Shown piece by piece: positions 13,520 through 20,521 of a stretch of DNA of 64,000 nt. The notes beneath the pieces were generated by a model that saw nothing but the letters and a program-made list of their open reading frames with translations, was not told where the DNA came from and made no database searches. The stretch comes from Myxococcota bacterium (GTDB taxonomy: Bacteria; Myxococcota_A; UBA796; CAJQPC01), in assembly GCA_036012755.1 (NCBI GenBank), contig DASCPX010000183.1:15849-79848 (forward strand), in the 5' to 3' direction. The first letter of the stretch is position 1, and the number at the start of each line of letters is the position of its first letter. Made by a program: the position numbers and the translations under genes.

Positions 13520-15601
13520 CTGCGCTACGGGGCGCTCCTGTGCGCCTCGGGGGCTTGCGCGCTGGCCTACGAGGTGTTGTGGATGCGGCGCTTCGCGCTG
13601 CTCTTCGGCGCCTCTGCGATCGCCACGACCTTGACCCTGGCCACGGTCTTCGGGGGGCTGGGGCTCGGGGGACTGCTCGGTGGTCGCCTGCCAGCGCACC
13701 GTCCGAACCGGACCTACGCCCTGCTCGAGGTCTCCGCGGCGCTCTGGGCCCTTGCCCTGCCCTTCGGGCTCGTCGCCCTCACGCCTCTGGTCCAGCGAGC
13801 GGACTCCCTGCTGGTCGACGCCTTGGTCGTCGCGCTGCTCGCCGGGCCTCCAGCGGTGGCCTTGGGCGCCACGCTCCCGGTGCTGGCCCGGGGCTTTCGG
13901 AGCCGGGCCACCGTCGCCGGGCTCTACGCGGCGAACACCGCCGGGGCAGTGATCGGCGCGCTGGCGGTTCCGGCTCTGTTGCTCCCGCTCTTCGGCGTCA
14001 CGGGCTCCGAGCGCCTCGTCGCCATCAGTGGCATCGCCGTCGCGGTCGTCGCTGGCCTCAGCGGTCTCCAGCGACGGGAGCGGGCGGTGGATCGGGTGCT
14101 GCGAGCCGACGCCCTGCTCGCCGTCGCCGCCGCGGGGTTCTCGGCGATGGTGCTGGAGGTCGCGTGGACACGCCTGGGCGCGGTGCTGCTCGGTCCCTCG
14201 ATCCATGCCCTCGCCTGGGTGCTGGCGGCCTTCCTGGGCGGTATCGCCGTCGGTGCGGCCCTCGGTCGTCGCAGAGGTCGCCTCGACCACGCGTTGGGGG
14301 CCATGGCCCTCTGCGCGCTCGCTGGCACCTTCGTCTACGCCCAGGCGCCCCTGATGTTCGCGAGCCTGTATGACCGCCTCGGCCCGGAGGGTCTCTGGCT
14401 CGCTTCGGTCGGTCTCGCGGTGCTCACGATGGCCGGGGCCCCCATCGCCAGTGGCTTCGTCTTCGCTCGAGCCCTGGAGCAGGGCGAGGTCGGCGCGCTC
14501 TACGGCGCCAACACGCTGCTGGGTGTGGTCGGCGCCGCGCTGGCCGGGCTGGTCCTCGTGCCAGCCCTCGGGGTGCAGGGGACCGTCGTCGTCGCCGCAG
14601 TCGTGGTGGCGCTCGCGGCCTCCGTGGTGGGCCGGAGACCGTGGTGGATCCTGGCCGCTGTCGCCCTCGCGGCGCTGATGCCGGACTGGGACGCCAGGCT
14701 GTATGCGGTCGGGATCTACAGCCGGGTCAGCGATCTCGGGGACCGCAGCCGCGAGGGCATCCGGAGCTTCGCGCAGGAGGGCTGGGACCTGCTCTTCTAC
14801 GAGGACGGTCGGACCGCGGCGGTGGCGGTCGGCCAGAGCACTACGACGGGCACGATCTGGCTGTCCATCAACGGCAAGGTCGACGCCTCCACCGGTGACG
14901 ACATGCCGACCCAGGTGCTCTCCGGCCAGATCCCGCTGCGCATGCACGGCGCCGCCAGGGACGTCCTCGTCGTGGGGCTCGCCTCCGGAGTCACGGCAGG
15001 GGCTGTGCTCGACGAGGGCGTGGAGTCCCTGGTCATCGTCGAGCTCGAGCCCAGGGTGGTCGAGGCCAGCCACTACTTCGACGATTACTCCGGAGCCCCG
15101 CTGTCCGACGAGCGCACGCGCCTGCGGGTCGACGACGCCCGGGCGGTCCTCTCGGAGCCCCAGACCTTCGACGTCATCATCAGCGAGCCCAGCAACCCCT
15201 GGATCACGGGGGTGTCGAACCTCTTCACCCTCGAGTACTGGGAGCTGGGGCGCAGCCGGCTCCGGGAAGGCGGGGTCTTCTGCCAGTGGATCCAGCTCTA
15301 CGGGCTCGGGACCCGGGAACTCCTCAGCGTCGTCGCTACCTTCGTCGAGGTCTTCCCCCAGACCTGGCTGTACGAGCCGCTCGAGGGCGGCGACGTGCTC
15401 CTCGTCGGTGCGCTCGGAGAGGTCTTGCTGGACGATCTCGACCCCGTGTTGGGCCCCGACGGCGTCCAGCGTCTGGCCGGTGGGGCCCGCCTCAACACCG
15501 ACGAGCACCCCTGGGTCGAGCTCGAGGCGCCCAGGGCGATGCACCTCGCGACGGTTGTGGCCAACAAGGAGGCCATCCGGCGCGTTAGCGGCCGACAGTG
15601 A
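13520..15601 (+). CDS. fused polytopic membrane / spermidine synthase-like (SAM-MTase fold) protein
   Basis: Track ORF 13574..15601 (GTG). N-terminal multi-TM region plus a C-terminal spermidine-synthase-like part (VLVVGLASGVTAG, VIVELEP, FDVIISEPSNPW). The first helix (YGALLCASGACALAYEVLW) lies upstream of any ATG/GTG/TTG, so a CTG start at 13520 is proposed. The start is uncertain. Confidence 0.75.
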   Translation: MRYGALLCASGACALAYEVLWMRRFALLFGASAIATTLTLATVFGGLGLGGLLGGRLPAHRPNRTYALLEVSAALWALALPFGLVALTPLVQRADSLLVDALVVALLAGPPAVALGATLPVLARGFRSRATVAGLYAANTAGAVIGALAVPALLLPLFGVTGSERLVAISGIAVAVVAGLSGLQRRERAVDRVLRADALLAVAAAGFSAMVLEVAWTRLGAVLLGPSIHALAWVLAAFLGGIAVGAALGRRRGRLDHALGAMALCALAGTFVYAQAPLMFASLYDRLGPEGLWLASVGLAVLTMAGAPIASGFVFARALEQGEVGALYGANTLLGVVGAALAGLVLVPALGVQGTVVVAAVVVALAASVVGRRPWWILAAVALAALMPDWDARLYAVGIYSRVSDLGDRSREGIRSFAQEGWDLLFYEDGRTAAVAVGQSTTTGTIWLSINGKVDASTGDDMPTQVLSGQIPLRMHGAARDVLVVGLASGVTAGAVLDEGVESLVIVELEPRVVEASHYFDDYSGAPLSDERTRLRVDDARAVLSEPQTFDVIISEPSNPWITGVSNLFTLEYWELGRSRLREGGVFCQWIQLYGLGTRELLSVVATFVEVFPQTWLYEPLEGGDVLLVGALGEVLLDDLDPVLGPDGVQRLAGGARLNTDEHPWVELEAPRAMHLATVVANKEAIRRVSGRQ

Positions 15602-16413
15602 GTATCCGCGATCGTGCAAGGACCGGGCTGCAGGCGCTGCCTCGAAGACTCAGGCGGCGACTGGGTTCCCGCGGCATACGACGCGAGGACATCGAGCTCC
15701 AGAGCCTCGTCGGCTACCGCATCGCCGGCACCATCTGGAGAGCCCCCGGGGCCAGGACCGCGATCATCCTGACGCCGGGAACCAACGACCCCGGGAGCGT
15801 GTTCGAGGGCTGGACCCAGCCGGTGAATGCCATGGAGATCGCCAGCCTCGGCTACGTGTGCGCGCACTTCGACCCGGCGGGTCGGGGGAGGAGCTGGGGC
15901 GAAGAGGACTACGGCGGCCCCGAGCACCAGGACGACCTCCGGGTGGTCATCGAGCACCTCCGCCCACAGGTGGAAAGCCTGGGCGTGCTCAGCATCTCGT
16001 TGGGAATCGCGATGGCGGCGGGAGCCCTGACAGAGGACCTCGGCGTCGACTGGCTGCTGGACTGGGAGGGCCCCTGTGATCGCGAGATCATCTGCGCGGG
16101 CGGTCGCATGATGGCCCCGGCGCTGGGCCACGACCTCGAGGACGACACCTACTGGTGCCCGCGCGAGGCGGTCGTCCACGTCCCGAGGCTCCGCTGCGGC
16201 TACGTGCGCGTCCAGTCCAGCCGCGACCACGCTCAGCCCGGCGAGCTGCGTCATGCCACCCGCATGATCGAGGCGGCCGCCGGCGGAGATCTCCCCTTCT
16301 TTCATCTCAACGAGCACGGCGACGGGGTCGTGCCCGAAGAACCCGACTGGTACGCTCCCGGGCGCGCAGTCGCGAACCGGACCCTGCTTGGCTGGGTACA
16401 GAGGTTGACATGA
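15598..16413 (+). CDS. alpha/beta hydrolase fold protein
   Basis: GTG 15598 overlaps the upstream TGA (GTGA), 271 aa. The nucleophile-elbow-like motif is GVLSISLG. A later Asp/His pair is plausible. Confidence 0.65.
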   Translation: MSIRDRARTGLQALPRRLRRRLGSRGIRREDIELQSLVGYRIAGTIWRAPGARTAIILTPGTNDPGSVFEGWTQPVNAMEIASLGYVCAHFDPAGRGRSWGEEDYGGPEHQDDLRVVIEHLRPQVESLGVLSISLGIAMAAGALTEDLGVDWLLDWEGPCDREIICAGGRMMAPALGHDLEDDTYWCPREAVVHVPRLRCGYVRVQSSRDHAQPGELRHATRMIEAAAGGDLPFFHLNEHGDGVVPEEPDWYAPGRAVANRTLLGWVQRLT

Positions 16414-16883
16414 TGCTCTGGCTCCTCACATCGCTCGCGCTCGCTGGCGCGCGCAGTCTGGACATGACCCTGCAGGTGGACGGGGTGGCGATCTCCGAAG
16501 GCAGCTACGTGCTGCCGACCCAGCCCGAGAGCGTCGAGTTCGACGTCGAGGGAGCGCCGCACCTCGCCACCGCGACCTTCGAGAGCCGACACGACACGGT
16601 GCGTGTGCACATCCGCGTCGACGAGCTCAAGGGCAAGAAGCGCAAGCCCTCCGAGGTGACCGCGCTGGAGCTCACGCTCTACGAGGACTACCCCGGCGTC
16701 CTGGACCGCAGCGTCGAGGGCAGCGCCTACAAGCTCGAGGCGGTCTGGACCGACACCAACCCGAAGAAGACACGCCTCGAGGTGCCCCCGGTCCCGCCGG
16801 AGGCGCTCGAGGCCCCGCCCGCAGGGGAGACACCGGAGGCCCCGCCCGCAGGGGAGACACCGGCCGAGGAGCCAGCCGGCTGA
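16410..16883 (+). CDS. secreted hypothetical protein with Pro-rich repeat tail
   Basis: ATG 16410 overlaps the upstream TGA (ATGA). Short signal peptide MMLWLLTSLALAGA. The C-terminus carries EAPPAGETP twice. Confidence 0.6.
   Translation: MMLWLLTSLALAGARSLDMTLQVDGVAISEGSYVLPTQPESVEFDVEGAPHLATATFESRHDTVRVHIRVDELKGKKRKPSEVTALELTLYEDYPGVLDRSVEGSAYKLEAVWTDTNPKKTRLEVPPVPPEALEAPPAGETPEAPPAGETPAEEPAG
16809..16862. repeat. perfect 27-bp tandem duplication inside a CDS
   Basis: gaggccccgcccgcaggggagacaccg occurs twice back to back (16809-16835 and 16836-16862) and encodes EAPPAGETP x2. Confidence 0.9.
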
Positions 16884-16885
16884 CC

Positions 16886-18869
16886 GTGCTCCTCCTCGTC
16901 GCTGCTGCCCTGGCTCAGGAGCCCGAGGGCCAACCCATCGACGAGGTCGTCGAGCGCACCGCCACGGCCTTCGAGGAGTCGCGGGTCCTGCGGGTCGTCC
17001 CGGCGGTGCTCGATGAGCTGCAGGTCAAGGAGCTCGTGCCCATCCTGCGCGAGGTCGAGACCAGGGACGACAAGGACGTCCGGGACTACATCCTCCTGTC
17101 CCGGCTGTACAGGCACCTCGACGAGCCAGACCAGGCCGTCAGGGCGCTGTCGGAGGGAGGCCTTGAGCCTCGAACCCGACAACGCCCAGCTCCGCATCGA
17201 GTACGCCTACGCCCTGCTGGAGAAGGGGGAGCTGGAGGAGGCCCGCGCCAGCGCGCGTGAGGGCGTGCTGCTCGACGAGTCACAGATCCGCGTCGCCACC
17301 GTCTACGCCGCCGCGCTGGGGTGGCCCTGGCCCTTTCTCGGCGCCAGCCTCGGCTCGATCTGGATCGCCGGGCTGCTGGGCTGGCGACGTCACCGGGGCG
17401 TCTCGGCCTGGATCGGCCGCACGGATGGAATCGCCGGGAGTCGGCACATCCTCCCGGCCCTGGCTCTCTGCGTCAGCGTCTCGCTCGGGCTGCAGTTCCT
17501 CTTCACCGCCCACAAGGTGGCCTTCGTGCTGCTGTCGTCCTGGGCGATCCTCAGCGCGGCATGGCTCGTCTTCGATCCCTTCCGCGAGCCGCTCGGACGC
17601 GCGGCCCGGGCCGTCGGCGGCTCTCTCTCCCGGCTCGCCACGGGGCGCCTCGGGGCTCCGCTGTCACGGCTGCCCCCCGGGACCCAGGTGCTGTTGCTCC
17701 TGGCCAGCGCCTTCTTCCTCGTGTCGGTGGCGCCCTTCATCGAAAACGCGGATCTGCGGCTCGTCGCGATCTTCCTCGGCGGGATGCTGTTCTTCTCCAC
17801 CCTCGGCGGGATCATCCTGCGCCTGCTCGGACGCTCCGCCAGCCTGCGCCGTAGCCTGCGATGGCTGGCTCTCGGCGGCACGCTGCCCTTCCTGGTCTTC
17901 TTCGTCTACGCCGAGCACGAGTCCATCCGCGTCTCCATCCAGTCAGCAGAGGCGCTCAGCAGCGCCGCGGCCGATCGCCTGGTCGGCTACCTCGTCGTCT
18001 GGGGCATCGGCGCGCTGCTCGCGCTGCTGCTCGCAGGCATCATCAGCCGCAGCATCCTCGACCCGGTGCGCAGCATCCTCAGCGCCGTCGAGGCGGTTCG
18101 GGCCGGCGACCTGGGGTCCCGCACACAGGTCGATCGTAGAGACGAGATCGGCACGCTGGCCGGTGCGGTCGACGAGATGGCGGCGGGACTGGCCGAGCGG
18201 CGCCGCATCGAGCAGACCTTCCGCCAGTACGTCGCCGGCGCGGTCGCCGAGCGCTTGATCGCCGGGGACACCCTGGTCTCGGAGCCTCGCCGTGTGCACG
18301 CGGTCGTGCTGTTCTGCGACGTGCGTGGCTTCACGGCGCTGTCCGAGAAGCTCGAGCCCGAAGACGTCGTCCGCCTCCTCAACGGGGTCTTCGGCCGCAT
18401 CGCCCCGGTGGTCCGCACCTGGGGTGGGGTCGTCGACAAGTTCCTCGGCGACGGCATGATGGCCGTCTGGGGCGTGCCCGAGCCTCTCCGCAAGGGGGCC
18501 CACGTGGGGGTCTCGGGCGAGGAGCTCGCTTCCCGCGCGGCGCTGCAGATGGTGGCCGAGGTGGAGGCGCTCGAGGCCGAGCTCTGACAGCGGGGGCTGC
18601 CCGCGATCTCGATCGGTGTCGGCGTCAACGCCGGCGAGGTCGTCGCCGGTCCCATCGGGAGCACCGAGCGCAAGGAGTACACGGTCATCGGCGACGCGGT
18701 GAACACGGCGCAGCGGGCCGAGTCCCAGGCCCGGGGCGAGGTCGTGCTCACCGAGGCGGTCATCGAGGTGCTCGGTGACCTCGTCGAGGTCGTGCCACGC
18801 GATCCTGTGGCGCTGAAGGGGAAGTCCGAGCCCGTCCTGCTCTACACCCTCACTCGCCTCCGCAGATAG
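16886..18869 (+). pseudogene. signal peptide-TPR-multi-TM-HAMP-class III adenylate cyclase gene, disrupted by a frameshift (~17155) and an in-frame TGA (18585-18587)
   Basis: Track ORFs 16886..17260 (frame 2) and 17013..18587 (frame 0) join inside one TPR motif. After TGA 18585 the same frame continues as [45 protein letters not shown]..., the second half of the cyclase catalytic domain, to TAG 18867-18869. A HAMP region (ILDPVRSILSAVEAVRAGDLG...DEIGTLAGAVDEMAAGL) is present. Confidence 0.65.
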
Positions 18870-19326
18870 CGGTCTCGGCGTCGCACTCGAAGAGCACGCC
18901 CAGGTCGCGGCAGGGGCCCGTGCCGCTGTCGAGGCAGTCGCCGACGGCGAGCGAGGTGATCGCGTGGCCGTGCCACCAGGCGCAGCGCTCCGCCGGGTCG
19001 TAGAGGACCTGGAGCTCAAAGGTCATCTCCGGGGGCACCTCGATGCAGAACACCCCGCCGACGTTGGCGGTGGTCTCGTTCAGCAGCGTGCAGTCCGTCG
19101 GGTCCCAGGCCCGGACCGCCGCGCTGGGGGCCCCCTGGTTGTCGTAGTCGCGCGCGACTCCGCTCACGCAGGCGTCGTTGGTGCGGCTGTCCTCGTCTTC
19201 GCTGTCCTCGTCTTCGCTGTCCGAGTCGTCCGTCGGCGAGCTGTCCACCGAGTCCTTCGGAGACGTGCAGGCCAGCAGGATCAGGAGCATGTGGACATCA
19301 TGGATCACCCACCCGGTGGATGGCAC
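18850..19326 (-). CDS. Cys-rich lipoprotein with acidic Ser/Asp/Glu linker
   Basis: Track ORF start is GTG 19326; the alternative ATG 19290 gives MLLILLAC. Lipobox LLAC, then [18 protein letters not shown], then a domain with 8 Cys. The 3' end overlaps the convergent cyclase 3' end by 20 nt. Confidence 0.6.
19186..19230. repeat. 15-bp tandem repeat (2 perfect copies + 1 diverged) inside a CDS
   Basis: gctgtcctcgtcttc occurs at 19186-19200 and 19201-19215, followed by gctgtccgagtcgtc. On the minus strand it encodes the EDEDS repeats. Confidence 0.85.
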
Positions 19327-20521
19327 CGTGACCGAGGCTCTCCTTGGTTCCGGTGACCTCGACCAACGGGTCGAGCACGAAGACCGCGCCGCCCTCGCTC
19401 CTCACCGCCGAGCCGCGATGGCCAGCGATGCGTCCCCCCTCCACCGTCGCTCTGGCGGCGTCCTGGCCAAGCAGACCGCAGTCCATGCCCTCGACGATCG
19501 TGCAGTCCACCAGGCCCAGGCGGGCCTTGTCGCGGAGCAGCACGCCGTGGCTGGTCATCCTGGAGAGCGTGCACCCTTCTGCGCGCACCTCGGCGTTGTC
19601 GGAGATCTCGAGCGCTTGGAAGGCGCAGCGGTTGACCTCGAAGTCCACGAGCTCGGCGACCGCGTCGTCGTGCACCCAGATCCCACCGGAGTTGGAGCCC
19701 TCGAGCAGGCCTCGCTCGAGCTCGGGCCGGGCGTCTTCGGAGATCTCGATGGACGCCAGCGCCCCCCCCTCGACCTGGATCTCCAGGTAGGTCCCCTTGC
19801 TCTGGCCGTGCAGGAAGAGACCGCTGGCTCCGCTGTCGCGCACCAGGAAGCCGTCGATGGTCGGGTCCGCGTCGCCCGTCACCTCGAGGGCAGCCAGGCC
19901 GCAGTGCAGGGCCGCGCAGCCGTGCAGCCGGGGCTTCGCGTTGCCGTGGATGAAGAAGGCCCCCCGTCCCGCGGCAGCCACGGTCACGCCGACCAGGGTG
20001 GGGGCGGCGTCGGCTCCGACCTCGACCCCCGCCATCTGGCCGGCCGCGATCGCGCAGGCGCTGACGGTGCCGCGGGCCTCTCCCGTGAAGAAGAGCCCAG
20101 AGCCCGAAGCGGTGATCTTGAGGTCCTCTGCGATCGGCGCTGCTTTGTCCTGCACCGAGAGCCCGATGGCGCAGCGCTCGGCGCGAACCCTGTTGATGCG
20201 TGGGGTGACCTCCCACCCGCAGGCGATCGCCGTTCCGCCGACAGACAGCTCCAGGTCTTCCAGCGTCGGGCTGCCGGCCTTGACGACGATGCCGTGGTGG
20301 TCGTTCTCCACGCGAAGACCCGTGATGGTCGCGTCGGCCCTGATGGCCAGCACCACGGGCTCCTTGCCACGGAGCACGCCGCCCCTGATGGTCACGGCCT
20401 TGGTCACGATCGTCATCTCGACGATGTGGACGCCTTCGAGCTGCAGGACGTCGCCTTCGGCCGCGGCGGCCAGGCCAGCCTCGAGATTGGGCACATCGCC
20501 GGGTACGGTCCAGGTCTTCAT
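19298..20521 (-). CDS. right-handed parallel beta-helix repeat protein
   Basis: 407 aa. Roughly 22-25 residue periodic segments with G/A..V....A.P.L..C.I pattern (e.g. GIVVKAGSPTLEDLELS, GLFFTGEARGTVSACAI, GVEVGADAAPTLVGVTV). It follows the PilT-like gene by 7 nt. Confidence 0.75.
   Translation of the reverse strand: MKTWTVPGDVPNLEAGLAAAAEGDVLQLEGVHIVEMTIVTKAVTIRGGVLRGKEPVVLAIRADATITGLRVENDHHGIVVKAGSPTLEDLELSVGGTAIACGWEVTPRINRVRAERCAIGLSVQDKAAPIAEDLKITASGSGLFFTGEARGTVSACAIAAGQMAGVEVGADAAPTLVGVTVAAAGRGAFFIHGNAKPRLHGCAALHCGLAALEVTGDADPTIDGFLVRDSGASGLFLHGQSKGTYLEIQVEGGALASIEISEDARPELERGLLEGSNSGGIWVHDDAVAELVDFEVNRCAFQALEISDNAEVRAEGCTLSRMTSHGVLLRDKARLGLVDCTIVEGMDCGLLGQDAARATVEGGRIAGHRGSAVRSEGGAVFVLDPLVEVTGTKESLGHGAIHRVGDP

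Follow-up and report, generated by a model that had tools for sequence, protein, structure and literature searches.

What does a TGA codon do in the middle of the catalytic domain of a bacterial adenylate cyclase? The question is raised by a gene in the window, the whole stretch of 64,000 nucleotides from a Myxococcota bacterium analysed here (contig DASCPX010000183.1), which belongs to a 6.7-Mb, 250-contig, MAG-like genome assembly that is 96% complete. The original prediction, read from the sequence letters, left three options: a nonsense mutation in a pseudogene, a sequencing error, or regulated readthrough. Comparison with near-identical contigs and with orthologues favours the first, and we put at about 0.86 the probability that the TGA is a recent, still segregating G>T nonsense change in a cyclase gene already hit by a 4-bp duplication, with gene decay and no recoding.

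The interrupted cyclase gene

The window reads AGCTC TGA CA at 18580-18589, with the TGA at 18585-18587 and C as the next base; the codons around the stop are GAG CTC TGA CAG CGG GGG CTG CCC GCG. The open reading frame 17013..18587 ends in ...MVAEVEALEAEL (...EALEAEL) and then TGA, beyond which the unshifted frame stays open for 93 codons, ending in ...LYTLTRLRR, up to TAG 18867-18869. Sequence and translation agree on this same-frame continuation past TGA-C, as originally described. Translated through the stop, the gene matches the Pfam profile PF00211 over residues 430-612 (positions 9-180 of the 183 in the profile, E 2.7e-23), and the 93-residue piece 3' of the TGA matches the profile on its own (E 2.6e-13), which bears out its assignment to the latter half of a class III cyclase domain. 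Judged by these scores, the downstream match is not due to chance and the stop splits a class III cyclase domain.

The encoded domains follow in the order exported/TPR N-terminal module, multi-pass membrane region, HAMP and cyclase domain (Table 1). The intact orthologues P0003, P0004 and P0005 begin with a stretch that aligns to the translated N-terminal fragment, which is now out of frame with the remainder of the gene. Gene finders call the 474-codon ORF (protein P0122), in which the first cyclase half covers positions 9-75 of the 183 of PF00211.

Table 1. Coordinates in the window of the features of the interrupted cyclase gene (residue numbering of P0001)
Feature	Position	Strand	Remarks
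N-terminal fragment of the cyclase gene	16886..17162	+	Signal-peptide-like start, then conserved N-terminal domain
GGAG|GGAG tandem 4-bp duplication	17152..17159 (units 17152-17155, 17156-17159)	+	Frameshifting
474-codon ORF (gene-finder call)	17163..18584	+	TPR remnant, transmembrane region, HAMP, first cyclase half
HAMP	18042-18191	+	Pfam E 5e-12
Cyclase domain across the stop	18300-18848	+	PF00211
Metal-binding Asp D436	18318-18320	+	Before the stop
Lys K476 (substrate)	18438-18440	+	Before the stop
Metal-binding Asp D480	18450-18452	+	Before the stop
Untranslated second cyclase half	18588..18869	+	PF00211 positions 100-181 of 183; PDB alignments 2W01, 6FHT
5-bp GC hairpin GCGGG-ggctg-CCCGC	18590..18604	+	2 nt after the stop
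Specificity Thr T557	18681-18683	+	After the stop
Transition-state Asn N564	18702-18704	+	After the stop
Transition-state Arg R568	18714-18716	+	After the stop

All six catalytic residues (D436, K476, D480, T557, N564 and R568) are invariant in a 19-sequence alignment, and the Lys/Thr pair is that of class IIIb adenylate cyclases. The best PDB matches are 6FHT and 2W01 (E 1e-30 to 1e-32), and the closest solved catalytic domains are 2W01 (Synechocystis Cya2), 3R5G (Pseudomonas aeruginosa CyaB) and 1WC0 (Spirulina CyaC). In the PDB alignments the stop maps to a variable loop directly before strand beta4, where there is no redox centre. The product translated with table 11 lacks the transition-state Asn/Arg pair, as predicted, and the second specificity residue as well, while the protein of the intact allele described below (P0123) keeps T557, N564 and R568. 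Reinitiation 3' of the TGA was considered and rejected, the next in-frame start, GTG 18699, yielding just 56 residues.

HAMP-linked class IIIb cyclases, such as the mycobacterial Rv3645-type HAMP-CHD proteins, also have a HAMP followed by a cyclase homology domain, and the two metal-binding Asp and the Lys/Thr and Asn/Arg pairs are all encoded in the window gene. It differs from them in its N-terminal periplasmic/TPR and multi-pass membrane module, which is specific to its orthologue group, and in a frame that is interrupted twice, whereas that of the orthologues P0003, P0004 and P0011 runs through unbroken.

Two alleles, a shared frameshift and the age of the lesions

A protein search retrieved a 568-aa protein that is 99% identical and reads ...EAEL-G-QRGLPA... 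across the site. The 90% cluster of this protein consists of three sequences, one truncated (474 aa) and two intact (568 aa) with Gly. The truncated product, identical to that of the window ORF, is found in 19 public contigs (sources SRR13782126, SRR13782129, SAMN18055974, SAMN21575216, GCA_002896315.2 and GCA_024712055.1) and the intact Gly-bearing products in six, five for one version and one for the other (sources SRR13782125, SRR13782127, SAMN18055977 and GCA_024712105.1). At the DNA level, and with the N runs of one scaffold left out of account, identity to the window is 99.88-99.96% for ten population contigs. Four of them (L021, L022, L023 and L024) have GGA at 18585-18587, and the window and the other six (L025-L030) have TGA. 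The GGA contigs differ from the window at only 1-4 other sites over 2.6-10.7 kb, and the TGA allele occurs on at least three SNP backgrounds, in several samples and in three assembly sources (NCBI, ENA and Logan). A scan of JGI metagenomes with a 42-nt pattern over the site, with N at the SNP, gave no match.

Since TGA is assembled repeatedly and GGA stands in near-identical contigs, the TGA is a real single-base polymorphism and not an assembly error. That the TGA arose by a sequencing, assembly or consensus error in an organism that truly has GGA could be suspected from the MAG-like, 250-contig nature of the window's assembly and from the GGA versions of the same locus, but a substitution error would not recur across 19 contigs obtained independently from several samples and pipelines and on different backgrounds. 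This option of the original prediction is effectively excluded, and we regard it as highly improbable.

Each of the four possible pairings of the alleles at 17642 and 18585 is seen among the contigs. The two alleles thus coexist on mixed backgrounds, a pattern that suggests either recombination or the merging of co-existing strains in the consensus, metagenome contigs being consensus sequences that may be chimeric. Six of the nine variable sites fall inside the cyclase gene, a SNP density that would hint at relaxed constraint, but the count suffers from uneven contig coverage and is too small to be given weight. Within the population, the SNPs in the gene are three synonymous, two missense and one nonsense, too few to show relaxed selection.

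Two further observations concern the assemblies around the gene. Contig ends of independent assemblies and scaffold N-gaps (L027, L029) coincide at window positions 15238 and 18733, which suggests that strain-level heterogeneity breaks assembly graphs close to the cyclase gene. Position 19344, in the minus-strand beta-helix gene 19298-20521, is T (Lys) in the window and G (Thr) in 7/7 of the other covering contigs; the T appears to be a variant private to the window's assembly.

The second lesion, the upstream frameshift, is also real, but is better read as a 4-bp tandem duplication than as a 1-nt insertion of an extra G. In DNA alignment with the 78%-identical locus L031, the window is 4 bases longer at TCGGAGGGAGGCC, the extra bases being absent from L031. 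Removal of one GGAG unit gives ...RALSEALSLEPDNAQ..., equal in length to the ...TALNEALSIEPDNAQ... of the orthologues. The sequence of the duplication site is identical in the near-identical contig L021, and the other nine population contigs have no indels relative to the window across it. As the duplication is present in all population contigs examined, the frameshift is fixed in the population; the nonsense change is not.

The duplication creates a Shine-Dalgarno-like GGAGG 6 nt before TTG 17163, and because this motif precedes the codon, gene callers start both the 474-aa and the 568-aa products there. The ORF from TTG 17163 may be translated on its own. In principle, the truncated 474-aa protein might be retained for some task other than catalysis, such as that of a partner or an inhibitor of a second cyclase, since the TGA allele is frequent and the new GGAGG and TTG start could let the downstream ORF be translated. 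But a cyclase homology domain cut in half is not likely to fold, no other lineage shares the truncation, and nothing sets such a role apart from a null allele that is neutral or mildly harmful. We consider it very unlikely.

The direction of the change is given by the relatives. Across 18 homologues (99% to 39% identity), the residue aligned to the TGA is G, A, S, E, Q, V or T, encoded in every one by a sense codon, and neither Cys nor a stop occurs at the aligned position. The orthologue of G002, a genome of the same genus, and that of G021 have open frames, free of internal stops. These sense residues and open orthologues indicate that TGA is derived from GGA (Gly) by a G>T transversion. The age of the lesions is addressed by comparison with the syntenic L031. 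The dN/dS ratio is 0.20 over the 568-codon part and 0.18 over the N-terminal fragment, on par with the 0.17-0.41 of five neighbouring genes, which indicates normal purifying selection for nearly all of the divergence and hence recent lesions.

Next to the cyclase gene, a 157-aa gene (16410-16883), which has a tail rich in Pro and contains a perfect 27-bp duplication, sits between a 271-aa gene and the cyclase. L031, otherwise syntenic, is without this gene, its 273-aa gene stopping 8 nt before the cyclase start.

Decoding of the UGA codon

In E. coli, UGA-C is a leaky, weakly terminating context. Leaky or regulated readthrough of the cyclase UGA-C, by near-cognate decoding (for instance by tRNA-Trp) and possibly aided by 3' structure, would yield some full-length active cyclase and make the TGA allele a low-expression rather than a null allele. 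Besides the TGA-C context, the commonness of this allele and a 3' frame that every TGA contig keeps intact, free of further stops and indels, are compatible with such decoding, but a recent mutation explains the intact frame equally well. In programmed readthrough the stop would be conserved among relatives; here it is found in no orthologue and is replaced by GGA in sister strains, and nothing suggests a selected recoding signal.

The 5-bp hairpin noted in the original prediction is present, but its structural significance does not hold up. The predicted minimum-energy fold does not contain it, and shuffled sequences fold as well as 18585-18650 does (z = -0.96). The hairpin is probably incidental, its sequence coding for QRGLPA and being present also in the GGA allele. 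As for the context, TGA ends 2272 of the 3208 long ORFs with a coding signature (71%), 407 of them with TGA-C. TGA is thus the main stop codon of the genome and TGA-C a routine terminator. Readthrough, whether regulated as once proposed or by the near-cognate route, is accordingly given very little credence, although basal leakiness of UGA-C may leave traces of full-length protein, which would not be regulation. It is a shade more doubtful still that TGA-C makes a leaky, low-output cyclase allele kept at intermediate frequency beside the GGA allele; if true, populations would tune cAMP signalling by stop-codon polymorphism rather than by losing the gene.

In the genome, ARAGORN detected no suppressor tRNA apart from tRNA-Sec. 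Genetic code 25 (UGA = Gly), considered since the alternative allele has Gly, was rejected, TGA being the dominant stop and no tRNA-Gly(UCA) being present. ARAGORN also reports in G000, the genome of the window, a tRNA-Gly with anticodon ACC, unusual for bacteria, which could be a pseudo-tRNA or a miscall.

Selenocysteine requires separate consideration. If the UGA were read as selenocysteine by the organism's SelB and tRNA-Sec with the help of a 3' SECIS hairpin, the machinery would be at hand, since the genome has a tRNA-SeC(tca) (ARAGORN) and a SelB (TIGR00475, 291 bits, over the cut-off), as well as a convincing Sec codon, likewise TGA-C, in an FdhA-like gene. The GC hairpin 3' of the cyclase TGA even has a loop starting with GG. 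But there is neither Cys nor Sec in the homologues, the sister strains have Gly, and the site is a variable loop instead of a redox centre. Bacterial selenoprotein genes obey a distance rule for the SECIS. At the cyclase the first loop nucleotide of the hairpin lies 8 nt past the UGA, against ~19 nt for the FdhA-like SECIS of the same genome, and the hairpin is plain coding sequence, unchanged in the GGA allele. A stronger hairpin farther 3' has a UCAA loop, and the cyclase TGA is not followed by any hairpin that combines SECIS spacing with a G in its apical loop. Rfam, searched over 18300-18900, gave no sense-strand match and two minus-strand hits at chance level (E about 8-10). Selenocysteine insertion is therefore extremely improbable. 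With genes such as fdhF and fdnG, the cyclase gene shares an in-frame UGA, a near 3' hairpin and a genome with Sec machinery; it differs in its variable, non-catalytic site without Cys or Sec homologues, in the Gly of the sister-strain allele, and in a hairpin of the wrong place and size.

The FdhA-like gene deserves mention in its own right. It encodes a molybdopterin oxidoreductase (G000 contig C59:125829, locus L036) with an in-frame TGA-C that occupies the canonical Sec position in the motif CAAT-U-HAPTVAGL and, ~19 nt downstream, a hairpin with a GGUCU apical loop. It is likely a genuine selenoprotein gene, one that automatic gene calling would break in two. It was flagged by a genome-wide scan for in-frame stops flanked by coding-like GC3, whose 306 hits are mostly adjacent same-frame genes, the scan being too unspecific to estimate pseudogene load.

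Proposed stepwise loss of a paralogous cyclase

The preferred reading remains a nonsense mutation in a decaying gene, the option of the original prediction that agrees with GGA in near-identical contigs, with sense codons in orthologues and with the second lesion upstream. As in a pseudogene or null allele, the disabling change stands out against contigs ~99.95% identical and removes essential residues. In the proposed course of events, the 4-bp tandem duplication, carried by the whole population, would first have cut off the exported N-terminal domain. The change from GGA to TGA would then have truncated the protein in the loop before strand beta4. Removal of the specificity Thr and the transition-state Asn/Arg would leave a product that cannot be an active cyclase. 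The TGA allele segregates with the GGA allele in the natural population of this uncultured, high-GC bacterium behind several metagenomes. Many class III cyclase paralogues are found in the window's genome and in its relatives, and the process probably amounts to one dispensable gene of a large paralogous family being lost in steps. The polymorphism, the frameshift common to the population, the absence of catalytic residues from the product and the sense codons of the orthologues are direct observations; the loss of activity and the dispensability of the gene are deduced.

Ordinary bacterial pseudogenes and nonsense alleles in accessory signalling genes present the same features, namely one base change that makes a stop where sister strains have none, another disabling lesion elsewhere in the gene, intact orthologues, and recent lesions in a sequence that otherwise still follows the old codon pattern. 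There is no substantive difference from them; mildly unusual is the presence of both alleles across several metagenome samples. The phenomenon is ordinary gene decay, and the finding has little importance beyond annotation. In the window's assembly the appropriate annotation of the locus is a disrupted (pseudo) adenylate cyclase gene and not a recoding candidate. Screens for selenoproteins and for readthrough could use it as a clean negative control from a genome that truly uses UGA for Sec. The fixed frameshift and the nonsense allele that still segregates represent gene decay caught in the act.
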